A DNA stretch of 63,971 bases, counting the filler. It is 11 parts of 11 records of this genome, joined end to end, with 100 filler letters (N's around TTAATTAATTAA, not from the genome) between each part and the next. Parts side by side here need not be neighbours in the genome. Positions count along the whole stretch, not along the records: positions 43,709 to 53,123 come from SRR7504441_9111; 10 more parts are not named here. The stretch is one strand, 5' to 3'. The notes under the pieces are model-generated. The model had not been told where the DNA came from. It did not search any database and saw only the letters and a program-made list of their open reading frames with translations. Below are positions 40,062-53,123 of the stretch, in pieces. The first letter of the stretch is position 1. Each line of letters starts with the position of its first letter. The position numbers and the translations under genes were made by a program.

Positions 40062-43000
40062 CTAGGTGAGCATCCACGCGACGATTGTGCACAGACAAAG
40101 CGGTAGCTGCAGTAGCAAGCTGCCGTCGATTACTGGGCCATCTAGCTCGATTGTCTGTGTGCCACTCCACTCAGCAATCAGGCCTTGGAGCTCAAACTTT
40201 TGTGTCTCAATCGGCGCATCAGCTAGTCGAGCAATGATCGTGCAAGCATACGCCAGCAGCGCCAGCTTCAAGCCGTCTTTGGCAGATGCAAGGTTGCTCA
40301 GCACACCAAGCGCCACTGCAATCTGAAGTCCGCCACAGAGCCCTCTCAATTCAGTAGAATCGGCACCTGGCTCGAAAAGAAGCACTTGGTGATTGCTACC
40401 GGGTGTATAAAAGAGCAGATTTTGCGCTACGTGCGCCTGCCAGTCGGTGCCTGCCCTAGTGTGGTGTACCCTGGTCATCAGAACTTGCACCAAGCCAAAT
40501 ATCAAAAAGTAGATCCCATCTAAAAGTAACACCAGGACAGCCACAGGGCTGGCGCTGGATGGCTTGGAGGGCGTGCAAGTGGTCTCTGTTTCATCTGCAT
40601 CTTGAAATTCCTCGGTCAGCGGCTCAATTTCAGCCTGATCCGCTCCTTTGCGCTTGACGGACCTCAGCGAGCTTGCAGCCTGCTTAAAGTGCTCGATTGT
40701 CTGCTCAAACTCGGCCTGGTCTTTGGGCAGTGCCCGCTCAAAGTGCTCAGCAAAGCTTAACCTGTCAACATGCAGAATCAGCAGCAGTAGCTATCTCAGC
40801 TCACCTGCTGATCCTGCCGTCCTTGTTCGTATCCATCTTCCTAATCAGCTGGAAATTTTTGGCCTCGGTCCATTCATCTGACTTTTGCCCGAGACTCCGC
40901 CTTGCCTTGCCCAGTTCCAGAAGCTCACTCGCCTCAATCGTGCCTGAGCCATCCAAGTCGAACAGGGTGAAAATCCCCAACAGCTGGCCCAACCGAGCAG
41001 TGCGCAGTGACCGGGCTGCATCTGGCGGGCTTCCCACAGGAGAATTCGGTCTTGAGGATGACACAGAGGTCGATGCCGCAGTCTGACTTTCAGTGCTTTG
41101 CTTGGCGCTTCGAGGCGAGGGGCCAGTTGCCCGTTTGGGCCATTCGTCAGCATCGAGCTCTGCATCTTGATTTGCGGAGCGGTGTCTCCTCTCAGGGCTT
41201 GCAGTGGCCGAAGATTCTGCTGCGGCAGCCACACTGCCGGTACCGGTCTCTCCGAGTGTGATCAATCGTCGGCATTGGCGGATGGCAGACGTGAACTCAT
41301 GCTCAGAGTTGGGAAGCGCTTGATCAAGGAACGCGACGAGCACATCCCTTTTGAGCAGGATCGGCCTTTCTGAGTCCATTAGCATTTCACGTGCCATGCT
41401 ATGCTGGGCCAGCGGGGCTGGGAACCGCTTTTGTACTCCTGTGCACAAGACCAGGGCAGTGTTGCTCCACCCTGGCCCTTCCACGACGGCTGTCAACAGT
41501 TCTTTGAGTGCCCGTCTGCGACTTTGAGCTGTCATCTTCGACCCATCACTTGAAGCAGGGCCACTGGCAGCCCCGTCCAGTCCTAATGCTGTCCTGAGGG
41601 TAGGCCCACTGATGCTGTCTTGGGTCTGTTTACTCACCGAACTATCCAATTGAGATCTAGTCAGCCCTGACTTGACATCATCCTGCGTACTTGTACTTAG
41701 CGAGTTGTCTAACCGAGTTCGCACCCGATCTGCCTTGGCCTCACCCTGCATACCTCTATTCCCTTTCGATTTCGACTCTCGCGTCTTCCCGGAAGGTGAG
41801 TCGAGGTAATCTCGCCAGCTTGGGGCTGCAGGGCTTGGAGAACCAGCATCACCTTCCCGCATCGATCTGCGGCCCAAGCTCGAGGACCGCTTGGGCGTCA
41901 CTTGGCTGGAGGACTCCTCCTGCGGCTCGGGCTGCGAGCTGAAAAACCCATTCCGTGACATGGAGGTTGGACTGGCCGAGCGTGGCGACCTGTCTTGCGA
42001 GCCTGCCGACCCAACCTTGGATCGAGGACTAGACCAAGGATCTTCGAGCGAAGCTGCTGCCATTTGAGGCGTCAAGCCAGTGCTGTGTGGATCGTGGCTA
42101 CCTGCAGCTGGGCTATACCTGGAACTGCGGATGCTGTCATTCGAGGCCTTGGGGCTGGCAGGCGCGCTGCTGTCTGGCTCAGGTGTGGCAGGTTCCCTCG
42201 CTCGAGAGCGAGAATTGGATCTTCTTTCTATCGCTTCAGAGCCCTTGCCCCGCTGCTCGCGTTTGAGTGCCTTCTTCCGCGCACAGCTGCGAGCCACCTC
42301 GAGGAGCTGCCCGATCTCTTGTTCAAACTCGTCCTGATCTTTGGGCAAGGCTCGCTCAAAATGCTCGGAGAACTCAAGCCCATCGATCTTTCCATCGCCA
42401 TTCACGTCCATTTTGCGTATCATCCGGACATTCCGGGCTTCGGTCCACTCGCCAGACTTTTGTCCGAGGTTCCGGCGCGCCCTGCCCAGCTCGAGCAGCT
42501 CGCTTGCCTCAATCACACCTGATCCATCCAAGTCGAATTCAATGAACACCTCCATCAGCTTTGCTACTCGCTGCGTCCGGTCCATTTTGGCCGTGCTGCT
42601 GGCTGAGCGGCCGCCCGACGGCAGGCTGGGGGATTCGACCGGCGGACGTGACTTTGACAGAGACTTTGAGCGAGCAGATTCGGCAACATCAATATCCCAC
42701 GCCCTCACAGTGCCATCCGAACCAGCAGACAGCAGCAGCCCGGTGCCTTCGCCGCTGCACCAGCTCTGAGGCAGGAAGATGGCGTCGTTCGCGTCGCCGG
42801 CTGATCGACCCGCCCCGAGCTTGCCACTCATTTTGGCAAGGCAGTCACCTGTACTGACCCGCCAGACACGCACAGCGCCGTCGTCGCCACAGGAAGCCAT
42901 CAGCTTGCCCGACGGCGCAAACGCCAGGGAGCGGACGACAGCAGCATGCGCATTCTCTATCACAGAGATGGCGAAGTGCACCCTTTCTGCTGCCTGTGAT

Positions 43001-43608
43001 GAGCCCCAGGTGAAGAGTCTGATTGTATTGTCAGCAGCCCCCGAGCCGACCAGCTTCCGGTTAGGGCTGAACCTGACCGCGAGCACACGGGCTGTGTGCC
43101 CGCTGAGCGTGGCACTGCACTCGGCTCGCTTTGGGTCAGCCACACCGATCCATACCCTCACAAGCGCATCGTCGCCGCCGGCTGCCACCAGCTCTGGCGC
43201 CGCCGTGTCGATGCTGCGCACTCTGTCCGAGCTCCCGCCAAACTCCCCCAGCAGCTCCCCAGTCGCGAGCTGCCACGTGCACAGCTGGTGCCGGTCTGCT
43301 GTCACGAGCGCACCGCTCTGCTCTAGAAGCCCGACAGCGAGCACAGGGCCTGCTGAGTGCTGCAGCACCAACGGATCCTCCTCGCCCCGCCACACGTAGA
43401 CTGCGCCGTTGGTGGTCCCCGCGACCACCTCGCCCCCGCAGCCGACGCAGCAGCAGCCGACGGCCGCGCTGCTCCGGAGCACTTGGCTTGCCCTGTCGCT
43501 CTCTCTGTTCCAAACACGGACCGTGCAGTCCGCCCCGCCGCTCACAACCACACCCGAGCTCCCCGCAGCGCACGCCAGCACCGCCCCCCTGTGTCCGGAC
43601 AGCTCCCG
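40062..43608 (-). CDS. WD40-repeat + duplicated EF-hand module + C-terminal TM protein, 5'-truncated
   Basis: WD repeats (SGGADCTVRVW, SAGSDGTVRAWD); two FDLDGSG.IEASEL modules; a 43-nt intron at 40762-40804 joins ORF 40801 to the hydrophobic ORF ending at 40062. Confidence 0.75.
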
Positions 43609-43708: not shown

Positions 43709-44654
43709 GCGTTCGAGCGGGCCAGTCAGGCGGCCAGCGGCCAGGCGGCCAGCAGCCAGCCGCAGCAGCAGGCTCCGCCGGCGGCCTCAGCCACGCCGTA
43801 CTCGTCCAAGTTCCTGCAGGTGATGCAGGCGGTCCAGAACGGCGAGGACCTGCCCGGAGTCCGCCAGATCGACGACAAGCCGCGCAATGACTCGTTCAGG
43901 GCCACCCCTTCGGATGGCGCCCGCCCCCAGAAGCCCTGGCTCAAGAACCGCACTGTCACTGGTGCCAAGCCTTATGTCAAGGGCCTGAACGGCGGCCCCG
44001 GGGTGAAATATGTCAAACCGGCCGCGGACCCGCGAGAGGCCGACGCGGCGGCGGCTCCCCCGGTGGGCGACAAGCTGCAAGGGCTGCAGGAGTCTGCGCC
44101 ATCGGCCGCGCCGTTGGGACGGGATGAACTGGCCTGGCAGCCGGTGGCCAGCTCTGGCTGGGACTCGACAAATCTGGCCGACTACTGCGGTGAGGCCCGG
44201 CCCTGGGCTGGCGCCAGCGGTGGCTCGACCAGGTGCGGATGCTAGCAAGCCGACCCTGGTGGCGCTGGACGGTCTGGTGTTCGATGTGTCGAGCTCTGAA
44301 AGCTTTAAGCTCGGAACCGGGTACAACGCACTAGCAGGTAGAGACGGGAGCCGGGCCCTGGCGGTGATGTCCCTCAACGAGACTGAACTGAGGCAGCGCG
44401 GGCCGCATCGCCAGCCACTGATTGCGCTGGGGCAGGTCCGATCTAGAGGGTTGTTCGGAAGAGCAGAGGGGAGTTCTCAATGACTGGGTGGCTTATTTCA
44501 AGGACCGGAAGCAGTACCCGCCCTCCTGCCTGAATTGGCACTGGGTGCTCCGGCTGATTTATTGGCCCGCAGGTATCCGTTGGTCGGTTGGGTCCCGTCG
44601 ATTGAACAAAGCACTGAGAACGGGGTAAACGCTCGTGCGGATGTGGAAACGTGA
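43709..44654 (+). CDS. KPWE-domain (PEX14/PEX39-like) + MAPR cytochrome-b5-like heme/steroid-binding fusion, 5'-truncated
   Basis: PYSSKFLQVMQAVQNGEDLPGVRQIDDKP...RPQKPWL, then LADYC|G...LVALDGLVFDVS...GYNALAGRDGSRALAVMSL...LNDWVAYF...YPLVG. Introns at 44190-44232, 44393-44435 (GC) and 44514-44572. Confidence 0.7.
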
Positions 44655-45105
44655 TGATTTCGATGCCATTTTGACTGATTTTTGACAAGTCAAGTACTGT
44701 CAAGCTGGCTCCGAAAAACGTTGGTAGCAGTTATGCGGAATGTGATCCATTAGACATGTGCGAAGACTACAATCGGGAGTGACTACTCGTGTTTACTTGT
44801 TTAATTAATCAATACATTGCAGCGCATTGTGCACATGCTCGTACTCTGCTCTGCTACCGCAAAAGACGCACCTGCTTGCATACTACCGGGAGCCTGTCTG
44901 CCTGCCAGCCGGTTATCGCCGCCCGCAGCCGAGCACTCGTGGTGCTTGCAGCCTGGGCGGCCAAGGGAGCGGCCGGGAGAGGGATCGCGTACTGATGTTC
45001 ACCGCGTTACTTGATTGGACTGCAGTCGAGCTATTGCCACTGCCTACCTGCAGCAAGACGGGTAAGCTACCGCCGCCTCGCGTCGGCTAGTGGTTTTGTC
45101 TGAAG

Positions 45106-45224
45106 GGAGCTCAGAGTATGCATATTGCGTTCACCGACACGCCACCCCCCGCTTGTACAGCGAGAGGTGGCGGACCGACTCAAACAAGAGGTGTCAGAAT
45201 TGTGCATAAATCATCATTACAGCC
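45106..45224 (-). ncRNA. Putative box C/D sno/scaRNA, target unknown
   Basis: Minus strand: box C ATGATGA 45217-45211, D' CTGA 45197-45194, D CTGA 45114-45111. The internal 13-bp hairpin at 45141-45171 pairs fully only on the minus strand (two G-U pairs). Confidence 0.55.
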
Positions 45225-45401
45225 AGACGCTACGATGGCAAGGCTCAGCTAGCCCACCTCCTGCGCCGGGAATCCTCTCTCATGCCATTCGTTCTCTCGG
45301 GCTTCGCGCGTCCCGCCAACGGCATCGTTTGTAGCTGCTGTGGTGCATGCCCGCTGGCAGCGAGCTCGCATAGTAGGCGCGCGCGCGCGCGTCGCCCTGG
45401 A

Positions 45402-45412
45402 TGAAGTGGGAT
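45402..45412 (-). promoter_or_regulatory. USE-like snRNA-gene promoter element
   Basis: Minus-strand ATCCCACTTCA versus plant USE consensus RTCCCACATCG; lies upstream of the structured region and is followed by a (GC)n run. Confidence 0.35.
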
Positions 45413-45448
45413 TCATGACCATTCATTCGTAATACTCTTTATATTGCG

Positions 45449-46261
45449 TCATAACGTGATTGAAGGATGCACAATTCTATCACTTGTGAGGTCGACGCGC
45501 TCCCAAATAGTCGAATCCCGCACCAAGTTTATCACTCTGTCGGCTTCTCTATCAATGTACTCTGTAACACCCTCCATACCTGCAGGCGCTGTGAAACCAA
45601 ATATTGCGTGCCCCTTGGATCCGTGAGTGAGAATGCCAGGCAACGAAGCTGCATGACTCGATAGTGTGCATACAAAATGATACAGCTCCAGCTCCTGAGA
45701 TCCTAGACAGTTGCCACACGGAGATCCGGGCTGCAGCTCTGGCACGTACACCACTGGGTAGCCCAGTAGCACACCCATCAAGCTCGGAGCTATCTCTGGA
45801 TCGAGCCCCTCCAGTGTCCCGTCGCACCTCAGCCGGTCGCAGCCCTGAATTATGCGCTCCACGATGAGATCGCGGCGTGGGCCTGCCGGGATAGCGCAGG
45901 GCGTCGGGTTGCTAGCTGCCACATCGACGAACAGGAAGCGGGCGAAGCGGTCGGCGGCGTCCGCCTCGAGCTGTTGCCAGACCCGGTGCTTGTGGAGCAG
46001 CACCGCGCACTGGAGCACATCCACGACCTCCAGCTCGGCCGCCCAGCCGGCCGAGCCCAGCTGTGCGAGCATCTGGCTCCACTCGGCGCTCGGTACGAAC
46101 ACCCGGTCCAGAAGGCAGGCGTTGCGCACCCCGCCCGCCACCGCAAGCACGTCGAGCAGCTGCGCCACCTGAGCTGTCCCAGGCTGGCTGCCCCCACGCC
46201 TCCGCCCCCGCCGGGTCAGCTGCGCCAGAGAGTCCAAGAAACCTGCGCACCAGTCCTCCAT
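45449..46261 (-). CDS. UPF0739/C1orf74 (DUF4504)-like protein
   Basis: VLAVAGGVRNACLLD, LMGVLLGYPVVY...NCL...FGFTAP. Confidence 0.65.
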   Translation of the reverse strand: MEDWCAGFLDSLAQLTRRGRRRGGSQPGTAQVAQLLDVLAVAGGVRNACLLDRVFVPSAEWSQMLAQLGSAGWAAELEVVDVLQCAVLLHKHRVWQQLEADAADRFARFLFVDVAASNPTPCAIPAGPRRDLIVERIIQGCDRLRCDGTLEGLDPEIAPSLMGVLLGYPVVYVPELQPGSPCGNCLGSQELELYHFVCTLSSHAASLPGILTHGSKGHAIFGFTAPAGMEGVTEYIDREADRVINLVRDSTIWERVDLTSDRIVHPSITL

Positions 46262-46388
46262 TCTTCTCTGCAGCGCGACTGGGCACAGCCGCGGCGTTGC
46301 ACCGGTCAGTGCCCGATTGATCAATGAGTTCCGTTATTTTGGCAATCCGGCCACGGCGCCCAAGTGGTGTTCGAGCAGCGCCCGCAGC

Positions 46389-47400
46389 ATGGCCGAAATG
46401 TCACTGGAGATGGTGCGCTGGTCGGTCCGATCGGGGCTCACCGTCTACAGGTGGACGTGCTGGTGATGGGCGACCAAGCGGCCCGGCTGGCCAGCATGTT
46501 GGCTTCTCCCGAGCAGCGGACCACCTGCTCCAACTATCTCGGAATCAACCGGGTGTCGCACGTATTCTGCGGGGATGACTACTGGTACACGGTGGCTCGA
46601 CGGGCTGCCGGTGCTCTGAGCCCGGCCGCAGTTGACCTTTGCGATGCTCGAGAATTACCTTTTCGACCCGTTCCTGATCAACAACGCGACCGAGGCGTTC
46701 AATTGCGTCGTGGTGACCTACACGCAGGGAGATGACGAGAGTCTGAGCGCGGCCACCGAGCTGATGAACAAGTGAGCATCCCTGAATGATGGCGTGTCTG
46801 CCCGGCCTGTGTCGCTGTCCACAACCCTTTCGCCCTCACTATTTCGTCCACAGGTTTGTAGTGAAGAACAACAGCTGTGTAGAAAAGAAGCCTAAAGACG
46901 CCAAGAAGAGCTCAGTTCTAGCCACAGCCAGTGTAGGGGATGACGATACGATCATCGGGATCCCTGCACCTCCGGAAACTAGACCGGTTGGGTTAGGACT
47001 CTTGGTCGCAGTGAACCCAACTCCCTTTGACGAGTCTACACAGCAGCGCCAGAGCTTCCTCCCGCTGACATCGTCTGGTCGTGAGTGAGTAATCCGGCAA
47101 TGCAACCGCTGAGGTGTGCGGCTGGGTGCAGCGCTGCCGATCCAAGAGTCGCAACGGACGCAGCACGAATCGCGGAGCAACACAATACCGCTGCCATGTG
47201 AGTCACTTCACGCTCTTTAGAGTCCAGTATTTTATTTTGCTTGTTTGATTTATGCTGGGTGCAGCTATCTCGGAGAGGAGGACATCGACTCTTGTAAGAG
47301 GGTCTGTCAATGGATCCTTGCTGCTTTCTCCCAATGCAATCCTGAGCACCAAATATCAGACAAAAGAATGCGCTCCGTATTAGCAAGCCTGCGTAGCTGA
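46389..47400 (+). CDS. Hypothetical protein, possibly a degenerate Ras-like fold
   Basis: Five GT-AG introns give a continuous ORF: VDVLVMGD...CVVVTYTQGDDESL...LLVAVN; no GxxxxGKS. Confidence 0.45.
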
Positions 47401-47785
47401 TCTTGAAACGCCCTATAACAGTATTAGTATGTTACAGTATTGTTGATGACCATTGAGTTTATTTGAGTTGATTATCTATGTAGATCTATATTAAGCTTTT
47501 AATAATTTAAGCTAACTGCTTTCAAGATGATCATGCTCGATGATCACGTGTTGCACTCATTAGCACTCATGATTACGACACCCACCAAACTAGTAATTCG
47601 GATTCAATGAGACTCGTGACCATGCGTAGCAGAGTAGTAGCGAAGAACTAAGTTTGCTATAAGCAAAATGGTACCCAAAAGTAGTGGCTTCTAAGCGGCT
47701 TCCGTTGAAACTAAGCTGTTCTGAAGCCTGACAAGATTGATTTCTCAAAGCTTTGGCACTTTGGCACTCGTCAAGCCTTTTCAAA

Positions 47786-50700
47786 TCATCTCGCCTTGGG
47801 CATGGTACGTGTAGGGGAAGCCGGTGTGAGGAGATTTTGTCCAATCCCACGCACCGTGTGAGAGTTTGCTCGACTCATTTTGTTCACATTTTGAATGGCG
47901 TAGGTGTCCCAGGGCTCAATCTCAAACTTGGAGCCAGCTTCTTTCTTGTGATACAGGCTAAGCGCTGAGATTGTAAGCCGGGCATTCTTGATGTTTGTGA
48001 CCAAGGGAATGGCATTCGAGAGTGCAGCCTGGCGCAGAATGTAACCATTCGTTTCGTTATTGCTTGAGAAGCGGCTCGCAGGAATATCAATCACAAAGTC
48101 TATGATCCCCTCTGCCATCCTTTCTGCACAGTTAGGGTGTTCGTTGCTGAGTGGGTGTGGGATGGCCTGCAAGCATATTATCAGACCGAGTTAGCGCCAG
48201 AAAGCGCTACCTCAGTCTTGATACCATGCTGTTCCAGGAATTTAGAAGTTCCTGGTGTAGCATACAGTTTCAAGCCCAGATCCTCCAGCATGTGTATGCT
48301 CTCCAAGAATTCCAGCCGGTGGCTTTCCCGGCCGATAGCAATCAGAACGCCCTTTTTGGGGATCTTGAACCCTGTTGCTAGAATCACCTAGCGAAAGCAG
48401 TGAGGATTCGTTGCATTGTGTTGCGGTGATAAGACTCATTACTGACCTTGAGATAGGCCTCCTTAAGATTCTGTCCAAAGCAGGCAACTTCACCAGTTGA
48501 TGCCATCTCAACACCAAGCACAGGGTCCGCGCCAAGTAGCCTACCAAAGGAGAACATCGGGGCTTTGATATTGACATATTCGACATCATTTGTTCTAAAT
48601 TGCGGAACCTGAGATGTCAATGTAAGTTCACTGTCACGCTCACTGCAAGGGTTGCACATACCTCATAGCGCAGGCCACACATGATCTTGGTGGCCATGGT
48701 GATGAAATTGAAGTTATAGGTCTTGGAAACAAATGGGAATGAGCGAGACGCTCGAAGGTTGCACTCAATAACTTTGATCTCGTTTGCTTTAGCAAGGAAC
48801 TGAATGTTGAATGGTCCTGTGATGTTGAGCGCGGCCGCAATTTTGAAGGCTGAGCGTTTGATTTGCTTGATGGTTTCCAGGTACAACTTTTGTGCTGGAA
48901 GGATGAGAGTTGCATCTCCAGAATGCACTCCTGAAAGCACAAACAACACTCATGACATTGCTCAGCCATGCTAGCATACCCGCATTTTCCAGATGCTCAG
49001 AAATGGCGAAGCACATAACATCGCCACTGTGAGCAACGCCGTCAAATTCGATTTCCTTGGCGTTTTCGAGAAACTTAGTGATCACAACAGGGCAGTCATT
49101 GGAGATTTTTGTGGCCTCCGACAGATACTCATCCAGCTCCGCCTTGGACGGCACCACATTCATGGCTGCGCCACTCAGGACATAGGAAGGGCGAATCAGA
49201 CACGGATAGCCCACTTCGTCACAGAACCGCTCTGCATCGGCCAGAGTACTCACAGCAGCCCAGGATGGCTGGTCGATTCCCTCTTTATCGAGCATTGCAG
49301 AAAACTTATCACGGTCTTCAGCCCGATCAATGTCAGTTGGAGATGTACCAAGAATGCGACAACCTGCTGTCATGAGAGGCATGGACAGGTTTTGTGGGAT
49401 CTGGCCACCCACCTACACACGCACAGAGAATCAGTGTGGTGGCACCACAAGCAAAACTGACCGAGACAACAATCCCTGCAGACTCTTCAATGCTGTAGAT
49501 ATCCATCACCCGCTCGTACGAAAGCTCCTCAAAGTACAGGCGATCACATTCATCGTAATCTGTGGAAACAGTCTCTGGATTGAAGTTCACCACAATTGTT
49601 TTGATCTGGTTTGCAGCCAGTGTGCGAACACAGCTGACAGCACACCAGTCAAACTCGACGCTGGATCCTATCCGGTATGCCCCACAACCCAAGACCATTA
49701 CACCATGGTCATAAAATTCAAGATCATGCTCTGTGCCGTGGTATGTCATGTACAGGTAGTTGGTCCGTGCAGGGAATTCTCCAGCCAGGGTATCCACTTG
49801 CTTCACCACTGGAGTCACACCTTGCTCGATACGTTTCTGCCTCACGTCGCTCTCTGTGCTTCCATCTTTGAGTGCTTGGCTAATATGCAAGTCACTGAAG
49901 CCCAGCTGCTTCGTGTATCGCATCAGAGGAGGTGTAATATTCAAAAGCTTCACGCTCGGGGTCTGCATGGCCATTTCGAGCCGAGTAATGTTCTCCAACT
50001 TACTGAGGAACCACTTGTCAATCTTAGACAGCTCCCAAATCCGGTCGACAGTGTAGCCCTTATGGAAGGCAGCTGCTATTGAAAGCATACGGCGATCAGT
50101 TGGAACAGACAGTGCTTTGTCCAGCGCTTCGTTGTCTAGTTCCAAATCCTCAGATCGTGGTGTAAAGCCTGCCACAGATCCATCCACCATCCGTACAGCC
50201 TTTTGCATAGTCTCTTCAAAGCTCCGTCCAATAGCCATCACCTCACCCACTGACTTCATTGCACTGCCAATTCTGGGGTCCACATGAGCAAACTTTTTCA
50301 AGTCCCACCTTGGGAACTTGACCACAACATAGTCAAGTGCAGGTTCAAAGCATGCAGTGGTTTCCTGGGTCACTGAGTTCCGAAGCACTGAAAGGTTATA
50401 CCCAAGGGCCAGCTTTGCAGCTACGAATGCAAGTGGATAACCAGTTGCTTTTGAAGCAAGTGCTGATGAACGAGACAAACGAGCATTGACCTCAATGATG
50501 CAATAATCAAGTGTGTTAGGGTCCACAGCGTATTGAATGTTACATTCGCCAACAACACCCAAGTGCCGGATCACTTTGATTGAGGCTTCTCGGAGCTTGA
50601 AATATTCCTCATTTGAGAGGGTCTGCGATGGGGCAATCACAATGGAATCGCCAGTGTGGACACCAAGGGGATCGAAATTCTCCATGTTACACACTGTCAC

Positions 50701-52927
50701 ACAGTTGTCATACCGGTCTCGAACCACCTCGTACTCCACTTCCTTCCAGCCTTTCATGGACTTCTCTACCAACACCTGGGGGCTGTTTGCAAATGCCCGT
50801 GTTGCCAGCTCAACTAGCTCAGCCTCATTGGTGGCAAACCCAGAGCCAAGTCCACCAAGAGCATAGGCTGCACGAATAATGACAGGGTAGCCAATATCTT
50901 TGACAGCTGCCAGGCACTGCTCCATATTCTCTGCTGTGATGCCTGGAGCGACGCGCTCATTAATCTCATTGAGCTTTTGTGCGAAGAGGTCACGATCCTC
51001 TGTGCACTCAATGGTTTGGATTGGGGTTCCAAGCACTTTCACATTGTACTTTCGGAAAACCCCTGAGTTCTCCAGAGCACAGGCACAATTCAAGGCAGTC
51101 TGGCCACCAAATGCACACATGATGCCATCTGGCTTCTCCTTGGCAATGACTTGCTCAACAAAGTCCGGGGTCACTGGTAGGAAGTAAACCTTGTCCGCAG
51201 CATCCTTTGATGTCTGGACAGTGGCAATGTTGGGGTTGATCAAGACGCTGTAAATGCCCTCTTCTCGCAGGACCTTGAGACACTGAGATCCGGAGTAATC
51301 AAATTCTCCAGCTTGGCCAATCGAGAGGCCGCCTGACCCAAGCAGCAACACCTTCTTTGGTTTAAGAGCAGGCGGCTCGACGACCGAAGTCAATGTCAGG
51401 CTTGCTTGAGGTTCGACCACCTTTTTGATAAAATCCTTGAACAGAAATCGGGTGTCGGTTGGTCCTCCGCAGGCTTCCGGGTGGAACTGCACGCTGAAAA
51501 TAGGCTTGGTTTCGTGGGTGATGCCCTCATTGGAGTAATCGTTAGCATTCACGAAGAGCTGCTTCCATCCAGCAGGAAGGCTCTCGGCATCCACACAGAA
51601 CCCATGGTTTTGAGGGGTGATGTAGCACTGCCGGGTTCGGCAGTCAATACAGGGCTGGTTGACACCACGGTTGCCATATGGCATCTTCTTGGTTCTCCCA
51701 CCTGCCAGCAGGCATCGAGTCTGTCCCAGTCTTAGGCAGAATACCAATCGCAAGGGCCAAAAGTTGGTTTCCTAGACAGATCCCGAAAATTGTTTGGTCG
51801 GCGGCTACCGCCTTCTTGATGTTGGCAATTGTTTTGGCACACTACAATTGGCTAATCAGGGCCAAGCTGCAAGCACACAGAGAGACCTGCGTCGGGTCAC
51901 CCGGACCGTTGCTGAGAAACAGCGCGTCGTACTTCTCCTCCAAAAAGTCGTAATCCCATGGGACGACGATGAGCCTCACCTACTCAGCGATCAGGGCAAT
52001 CTTTGTCGGGCGTCACCTTGTGCGAGAGTAGCTGTCGGATGATGTTGTACTTCATACCACAGTCGACAGCAAGCACAGTGCACTGAAGCCAGACGGTCAC
52101 ACGAGCGACAGGGTGGGCCAGACCGTAGCGTCAGGAGTGTCGTTGAAAACCTTCTTCTCTTTGCACGAGACCTCGGCTACCAGGTTCCGCTTGTTTGGAT
52201 CGTCGAACGGGATGTCTTCTGCATCGGCTTGAACAATCTGCAGCAATCCCCACTCAGCCTGCAGTTGGCGCTGCTGTCGCGACCTTGCCCAGCAGGGCTC
52301 CGCTCTCACGAACCAGCTTTGTGATGGCCCGGGTGTCAATTCCATACAGTGCAGGCACGTTGTTGGCAGTGAGCCAGTCTGACAGCGACCTGGCCGAGTT
52401 CCAGTGGCTGTGCTCTTTCGAGTAGTCAGTGATGATCAGTCCCGAAATCTGCGATCCCCATCGGCACGCCCGACTAGGTGAGGGGCGCACGTGGATCTGG
52501 TCCGATTCGAAGTTGGCTAGCATGCCCCACTCGTCCAGGTCAGCAGCCGGCACGCCATAGTTTCCCACGAGCGGGAAAGTCAGCACCAGGATCTGCCAAG
52601 GGTGGATCACCGGCCTGATGGCGGCAAGAGCGCGCCTGCCCGCGGTAGGACGGATCTGTCAGCGACTCTGGGTAGCCGACCATCGCAGTGTTGAACACCA
52701 CCTGGACACAGAGCAGCTCAGCACTCGTGCAGCGCAGCGACTGAGGGCACCTCGCCAGCGATCGACGTCGAGGCACCGAACGAAAAGCCCTCGAACTCAT
52801 GCCCACCCTGGAGCACGAGCTTCCCGCGCGGACGCTGCTCCACCTCGGTGATAACATCCGGGACGACCGTCCCCTTCTTTGCTGACCCGCCAGCTGCGCT
52901 GCCCGCCTTCCGCTTTGGTGTAGGCAT
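47786..52927 (-). CDS. Glutamine-dependent carbamoyl-phosphate synthetase (fused GATase + CPSase, no DHOase/ATCase)
   Basis: [19 protein letters not shown] (catalytic Cys), [25 protein letters not shown], two ATP-grasp halves and an MGS-like tail; 13 short introns. Confidence 0.92.
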
Positions 52928-53123
52928 GCTCCGATGCTCGGCGTATTGCTGCTCCCGGTACCGTGTCCGTTGGGATTCAAAAAAGGCCCCGCGCTGATGA
53001 ATTTGATCTGTCATTTCGCGGAAATGCGTTCTAAATGCGTTCCGGATGTGGAAGGCCGCAGTCAGAAGCGCCAATTGAGCGGACGGATGGCTGCAGCCCC
53101 GAGTAGGGTGAGATTCCCGAAGT

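Follow-up and report, generated by a model that had tools for sequence, protein, structure and literature searches.

The window analysed here, a stretch of 63,971 nucleotides, is made of eukaryotic contigs joined by N-linkers, and the locus described lies in the piece at positions 43709–53123. On the minus strand of this piece, a putative box C/D RNA sits in an intron between a DUF4504 (C1orf74-like) gene upstream and a convergent gene on the other flank (Table 1). The DUF4504 gene has two homologues only, both at 42%, and is covered by RNA at 45718–46174; it is relevant here because the exons that host the snoRNA could be its 3′ UTR. The convergent gene carries a PEX14-like KPWE domain (E 4.7e-12) and a weak cytochrome b5-like match downstream (E 0.004), and one of its two spliced introns is probably GC-AG. 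Elsewhere in the window, the minus strand at 40062–43608 encodes a WD40 and EF-hand protein with a block that is repeated about three times and is also present in the next ORF. The Rfam scan found no snRNA gene in the window. When positions 44701–46400 were compared by blastn and tblastx with the 119 homologue loci described below, the snoRNA alone was matched.

Table 1. Features of the snoRNA locus and its flanks, in positions of the whole window
Feature	Position	Strand	Basis
Convergent gene, other flank of the locus	43709–44664 (reaches at least 44664)	+	Two spliced introns, 43 and 59 nt
ATTAAA, possible host poly(A) signal	44800–44805	−	Predicted from the sequence; 32 nt past the RNA contig end
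Host exon 2 (portion covered by RNA)	44837–45047	−	Run X3, record 5, 45045–44837, 0 gaps, 4 other letters
Intron, 210 nt, GT..AG	45048–45257	−	Joint skipping 210 nt (CT..AC on the + strand) in one RNA contig
Box C/D snoRNA, snR48/snoR1/SNORD60 group (Rfam clan CL00066)	45106–45224	−	Rfam and homologue model; C to D 107 nt
Box D, CTGA	45111–45114	−	Sequence; found as terminal box
Box C′-like element, GTGAACGC	45127–45134	−	Of 46 family sequences, 37 carry TGAAC in the 3′ half
D′–C′ stem-loop, 14 bp, 2 G-U	45140–45172	−	Folding; family comparison
Box D′, TTGA	45180–45183	−	Most frequent family D′ (22 of 46 sequences, the window counted)
D′ guide	45185–45199	−	Antisense to LSU rRNA helix 88
Box C, ATGATGA	45211–45217	−	Sequence; Rfam consensus position; found as terminal box
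Host exon 1 (portion covered by RNA)	45258–45294	−	Poly(A) metatranscriptome contig, run X3, record 5, piece 45294–45256
CAACGGCA, YAACGG(A/C) word, possible host promoter element	45317–45324	+	Predicted; 23 nt before the RNA contig 5′ end
DUF4504 (C1orf74-like) gene, upstream neighbour	45449–46261	−	Pfam E 1.3e-13; stop at 45449

To follow the transcription of this region, four of 24 listed runs were compared with the window, three of RNA and one of DNA; the shares given for the listed runs were all under 0.2 and carry no evidential weight. A 248-nt poly(A) contig of run X3 joins 45258 to 45047 and then continues without gaps to 44837, so that the GT..AG intron proposed in the preliminary description is spliced in RNA; this joint was observed in one contig of depth 4, with 39 nt on its short side, in one of the three RNA runs. 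The DNA contig (X1) crosses the intron unskipped. The RNA contigs were of poly(A) and RT-PCR origin; a mature snoRNA did not appear among them, and poly(A) contigs would not show one. As had also been proposed, the intron is about five times longer than is usual in this genome: the six introns of the NDUFV1 gene in the window are estimated at about 39–60 nt, five of them at 39–43. As a marker, NDUFV1 does not place the organism, since its nearest relatives are at 85–88% and the named ones at 73% at most. Two small introns (44992–44953 and one from 44936) that were expected to follow are retained in the sole RNA contig that covers them, and the same contig reads through the TTTT at 44864–44861, where the RNA had been supposed to end. 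The segment 44953–44992 (minus strand) is a 40-nt GT..AG unit like the usual introns of the genome, and its retention in one RNA contig may reflect optional splicing. The DNA contig is identical to the window over the 186 nt at 45108–45293, which include intron and the end of exon 1, and therefore yields no covariation; it diverges abruptly over 45294–45325, including the YAACGG word, as expected from a mosaic haplotype or a chimeric contig.

The snoRNA thus lies within an intron removed from a transcript, with 40 nt between the donor and the start of its C box and 63 nt between the end of its D box and the acceptor. The first of these distances is close to the 41–60 nt reported for Neurospora snoRNAs (PMC2780460). 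The fold of the intron is more stable than that of shuffled sequences (z −2.9), and no such advantage was seen for the two exons (z +0.7 and +1.4). Upstream of the RNA contig, CAACGGCA is the reverse complement of most of ATGCCGTT, which had been taken for a stem arm. Words of the form YAACGG(A/C) occur within about 120 nt of seven of nine roughly placed gene starts, but support for a promoter role is modest because there are 44 of them in the window, where 28 are expected.

These observations support the proposed spliced gene that hosts a C/D guide, given that the splice joint is present in RNA and that the box layout fits a real family. The sequence of the host transcript indicates that it is probably non-coding. 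In this respect it resembles the non-coding hosts of animals (UHG, gas5) and of Neurospora clusters I–V (PMC2780460), which are spliced, contain short ORFs only and carry intronic snoRNAs about 40–60 nt from the donor; it differs from them in that one snoRNA and one intron were seen here, and in that the other introns of the genome measure about 40 nt. A possible but unlikely variant of this explanation, which is not an alternative to the snoRNA itself, is that the DUF4504 mRNA from upstream ends in a long 3′ UTR formed by the host exons, so that the snoRNA would occupy a 3′-UTR intron of a protein-coding gene. Both lie on the same strand, about 155 nt separate the DUF4504 stop from the first RNA cover, and run X3 contains the DUF4504 coding region as well as the host exons. 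In contrast, no contig in the four runs bridges 45294–45718 (a gap in cover that, like the lack of RNA cover at 44726–44836, by itself proves nothing), an ATAAA word occurs 7 nt after the DUF4504 stop, and the 5′ end of the RNA contig is closely preceded by the YAACGG word. In addition, the intron would begin about 190 nt past the stop codon, a position that usually triggers nonsense-mediated decay.

It is considerably less probable that the host encodes a protein of 82–99 residues. An open frame does cross the splice joint in phase 0, starting at 45422 or 45371 and stopping at 44915, and this frame of 99 codons is the sole sizeable ORF across the joint. However, its codon score is at the off-frame level, lower than that of 97% of 116 windows taken in frame from real genes, and its GC2 exceeds both GC1 and GC3, unlike in all 11 reference genes. 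No Pfam family was matched (best E 0.09; the second half was scanned by Pfam only), and the 55-residue first half had no match among 1.84 billion proteins. Beyond 45293, the loose end of the DNA contig shows a net 1-nt deletion within the frame, a weak indication since it was read by eye from 30 letters of one contig.

To place the RNA in a family, we used the Rfam search that had been suggested as a check, and a known snoRNA group was matched. In a permissive scan the best match was snoR1 (RF00345; 37.7 bits, E 3.8e-6), with the 5′ half alone aligned; this score is lower than the curated gathering cut-off of 49 bits, and at curated thresholds Rfam gave no match over the whole window. Because it falls below the RF00345 cut-off, the snoRNA was filed at the level of the clan (CL00066 group) alone. 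The guide and its register are identical to the Rfam snoR1 consensus. A pattern scan with the C box and the guide, which are therefore shared by construction, recovered at least 119 metagenome loci; 20 of these were scanned with Rfam, and six reached the snoR1 cut-off, eight were below it and six were without a snoR1 match. Ten of the 119 loci were unparsed and dropped, and the alignment and ranks leave out nine of the 55 distinct parsed sequences, because their C′ or D calls were doubtful (L006, L008, L016, L029, L030, L039, L078, L088 and L092). The family set consequently comprises 46 reliably parsed sequences with the window included, or 45 homologues without it. These homologues have a common plan, in which C, a spacer, the guide, D′, a stem-loop of variable length, a C′-like TGAAC and D follow one another.

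A model built from the 45 homologues, leaving the window out, matched the snoRNA with 54.9 bits (E about 2e-11, model positions 1–97), and this was its sole match in the 64-kb window. The 3′ half of the RNA, which is outside the search pattern, fits the consensus of the 45 homologues. Homologues with long spacers also score short of the snoR1 cut-off (L063, 33.8 bits; L099, L085 and L117, no match), which means that long D′–C′ hairpins push true family members under the Rfam threshold. The hairpins of these four loci span 37–78 nt, and the family model could be widened to include them. Among viral contigs, the scan for the C box and guide gave three loci, all of them chance or coding matches without Rfam support, and the scan for rRNA gave none.

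Several of the metagenome loci showed arrangements of their own. At L012:776–2785, at least five tandem snoR1-type copies are 400–700 nt apart in one 3-kb locus; at L007:867–1538, a snoR8a–snoR1 cluster occurs twice in tandem; and at L016:553–1570, SNORD15-like, SNORD52 and snoR1-type RNAs are clustered. In the L039:1501 region, a snoR1-type copy has about 37 unrelated bases in place of the C′–D segment of its near-identical sisters, as in a pseudogene or a chimeric contig. A 147-nt contig of the poly(A) library (X3 record 6) carries the snoR1-type RNA of another organism, with six differences over 37 nt from window positions 45191–45227.

The terminal boxes and the 107-nt C-to-D span given in the preliminary description (ATGATGA 45217–45211, CTGA 45114–45111) were corroborated, but the CTGA at 45197–45194 that it assigned to D′ belongs to the interior of the guide. 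The D′ and C′ boxes identified here occur at family-conserved positions outside the search pattern. The final GA columns of D′ are conserved in at least 90% of the 45 homologues, and the C′-like element counts as independent support because it was not part of that pattern; the invariance of the CTGA of box D in the alignment is by construction, since CTGA was used to cut the homologues. The C-to-D length of the 46 family sequences has a median of 86.5 nt and a range of 66–132 nt.

The G-U hairpin noted earlier was recovered between D′ and C′, with arms at 45171–45159 and 45153–45141 (13 bp, two of them G-U) that extend to 14 bp. Its strand bias was likewise borne out, given that the spacer reaches −29.8 kcal/mol (z −5.9) and the opposite strand −20.9, some 9 kcal/mol weaker. 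At 45 nt, the D′–C′ spacer is the fourth longest and the second most stable of the 46, whose median is 22 nt; therefore, long G-U hairpins at this position are within the family range. Across the 45 homologues, the basal D′–C′ stem and the terminal stem covary (81.7% paired, score 0.661, compared with 0.188 for shuffles and at most 0.193 for slid controls), for a structure that was chosen by inspecting that same alignment. In the window itself, these two stems are weaker than in most sequences, with two consecutive pairs by our rule, against at least four in 31 of 51 sequences. Possible terminal stems are GGCT (45224–45221) with the A of box D plus GCT, and GTCTGG (45228–45223) with TCAGAC (45103–45098); the model register flags non-standard pairs.

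Other stems had been proposed around the hairpin, and their letters are all present. The GACAC/GTGTC stem uses bases of the guide, and in the case of TATGCA/TGCATA the 3′ TATGCA turned out to be a family feature (12 of 46), while the stem itself was not borne out. The two long-range stems of 8 bp do not go beyond chance, which predicts 2.2.

In the fold of the naked RNA the guide is mostly paired (mean pairing 0.75, rank 4 of 55), and a guide-free fold costs 8 kcal/mol more than the lowest-energy one. The 5′ arm of the hairpin is identical to the guide at 10 of 13 positions, a likeness that was noticed after the fact and that 47 of 5000 shuffles equal. The arm would most simply have arisen by local duplication of the guide. 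It is very doubtful that the hairpin has a function as an imperfect guide copy, whether by extra rRNA pairing through its arm or as a switch between masked and active RNA; a built-in decoy of the latter kind, in which the duplicated guide would form a long hairpin whose base could mask the real one and a conformational change in the snoRNA or its intron precursor would gate helix 88 methylation, is just as doubtful. Besides the likeness itself and the covered guide of the naked fold, the spacer forms the best duplex with the target among the 46 family members (−17.2 kcal/mol, median −9.1), and yeast snoRNAs employ D′–C′ segments for extra pairing (PMC3116282). Nevertheless, the runner-up duplex (−15.7) comes from an ordinary 18-nt spacer and length alone raises spacer scores, a likeness of 11 of 13 was obtained in the same way for a plant-type homologue, and three homologues with longer spacers have no such guide copy. 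Moreover, the arm is locked in a hairpin of −30 kcal/mol and would compete for the same rRNA site, and close relatives were not found among the homologue loci.

Complementarity to rRNA, another of the suggested checks, was found for the D′ guide. Its duplex with LSU rRNA measures 13–17 nt and is the longest or joint-longest in six of six eukaryotic LSU rRNAs, all from other eukaryotes and perfectly matched by construction; since these rRNAs were selected with the guide complement, the match shows where the guide fits and not the organism's own site. In the two rRNAs for which it was computed, the duplex has about −22 to −26 kcal/mol. The antisense stretch next to D′ therefore exceeds 10 nt, and in helix 88 the first G of GAGG is opposite C 45188, the fifth base before D′. 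By the fifth-base rule, the predicted target is the G equivalent to yeast G2791 and Arabidopsis G2792, which would be methylated. The segment before box D pairs over 13 nt (one G-U, box included) with one of six LSU rRNAs and over 11 nt with one of five SSU rRNAs, and elsewhere over at most 9 nt among the top five duplexes listed per rRNA; it is therefore without a consistent rRNA target. The C′-like element is complementary over 8 nt (−11.5 kcal/mol) to rRNA located 36 nt downstream of the target. We do not claim extra pairing by this element, because many homologues read TGAACTC, and because the extra pairing of yeast snR48 seems to fall just upstream of the target (PMC3116282 supplement, whose text is garbled).

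The guide complement accompanied by a second 7-nt complement was found at 40 or more loci in prokaryote assemblies, and in 35 of 40 the two share one fixed spacing. Rfam was run on 12 of these loci and identified eukaryotic LSU rRNA in all nine with the fixed spacing and in none of the three without it. These contigs (L123–L160) are stray eukaryotic rDNA in many prokaryote assemblies, named isolates included. Two sequences of this kind, both filed in bacterial MAGs, contain insertions: a GIR1 branching ribozyme inside the SSU rRNA gene (L158:1303–1508) and a group I intron inside the LSU gene (L156:5392–5807).

The position in helix 88 is known from both plants and yeast, and it is among the sites common to the two (PMC3511168). 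Plant snoR1 (RF00345, clan CL00066) is the guide for 25S G2792 of Arabidopsis, with G2794 predicted in addition, and G2792 has been equated with yeast G2791 (PMC8053127, PMC8583080). Yeast snR48 (RF00471, same clan) directs Gm2791 and Gm2793 of 25S, both in helix 88, through a non-consensus D′ of six nucleotides, AUGUUA, that allows two registers (PMC5389607); a duplex at 2791/2793, the same site as here, is also drawn in the supplement of PMC3116282, as far as its garbled machine-read figure text can be followed. Nc CD8 of Neurospora and human U60/SNORD60 are listed as snR48 homologues at this site (PMC2780460, PMC8583080), and the human Gm4370 aligns with the second G, yeast 2793 (PMC8583080).

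The window RNA is like plant snoR1 in its C box, guide sequence, guide-to-D′ register, TATGCA before D and terminal layout, and like yeast snR48 in its rRNA site, its use of a D′ guide and its non-consensus D′. It differs from both in the D′ itself, TTGA instead of ATGA in snoR1 or the six nucleotides of snR48. In the plant-type locus L007, the D′–C′ spacer has 22 nt as opposed to 45, and the gene belongs to the tandem snoR8a–snoR1 cluster, whereas the window copy is single and intronic. Nc CD8 is intergenic and has 85 nt (PMC2780460), again unlike the intronic copy.

From its boxes, guide and family match, we conclude that the minus-strand RNA is a real box C/D snoRNA and not an orphan, as had been suggested; it belongs to the snoR1/snR48/SNORD60 group and has a predicted rRNA target. 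The preliminary description held that a match to a known snoRNA would remove the novelty, and the known family together with the target does so. The explanation that we favor as a whole, and with high confidence, is an intronic guide of the snR48/snoR1 type that targets LSU helix 88 and is carried by a spliced, probably non-coding transcript.

On the other hand, the idea of one long structured RNA of 460–490 nt, running from a USE promoter to the TTTT as a telomerase-like or other polymerase III RNA, is already contradicted by the observations and retains next to no probability: the transcript is spliced through its middle, poly(A)-selected and passes the TTTT, the exon folds do not differ from shuffles and the fold of the whole 506-nt region is not beyond chance (z −1.43), and an rRNA guide accounts fully for the C/D part. 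It had in its favor the TTTT, the C/D boxes that trypanosome telomerase RNAs carry, and ATCCCACTTCA at 45412–45402 (minus strand), which is present with two mismatches to the plant USE. This word was rejected as a USE, since the window has 28 sites within two mismatches and 20 shuffles gave 32.7 ± 4.6. ATCCCAC is present 13 times where 7.1 ± 2.7 are expected, and this slight excess is distributed along the window. RTCCCAC was found within 400 nt upstream of 2 of 26 homologues and downstream of 1 of 27. As the preliminary description had stated, there is no telomere template: for 15 repeat types the longest match was 7 nt, and a template was taken as one repeat plus at least 2 nt. The likeness to the telomerase RNAs of Diaphoretickes that have USE/type-3 promoters (PMC8287931) is limited to the USE-like word and the T run; unlike them, the window RNA lacks a template, is spliced and reads through the T run.

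Returning to the intronic guide, we propose the following pathway. RNA polymerase II would start a short host transcript near 45300, which is spliced at 45257–45048, as seen once in RNA, and would be polyadenylated near 44800. This transcript probably codes for nothing and would act as a carrier. By analogy with known intronic snoRNAs, the intron would be debranched and trimmed to a C/D snoRNA of about 110–120 nt, and the core proteins Snu13/15.5K, Nop56, Nop58 and fibrillarin would bind the C/D and C′/D′ motifs. The guide would pair with helix 88 of the pre-LSU rRNA, as indicated by the complementarity and register in other eukaryotes, and fibrillarin would 2′-O-methylate the G that faces the fifth base before D′. 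As with yeast snR48, a second modification by the snoRNA may fall on the G located two bases further. Between D′ and C′, the long hairpin is the variable stem-loop of the family, and we propose that the need to accommodate the snoRNA accounts for the length of the intron.

The literature on snoR1 in algae does not describe the window copy in the portions available, and the available text on Ostreococcus snoRNAs (PMC7671301) has nothing on snoR1; orthologues from algae or protists may be listed elsewhere. These results do not reveal a new mechanism. The snoRNA is an ordinary one, a marine protist's copy of the ancient guide RNA known as snR48 in yeast and snoR1 in plants, and its importance is modest, in that it would extend this family to a presumed, poorly sampled marine protist lineage. 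The locus points to a carrier transcript of the gas5 kind in a genome whose introns measure 40 nt, and it shows that oversized introns offer a cheap means of finding snoRNAs there.
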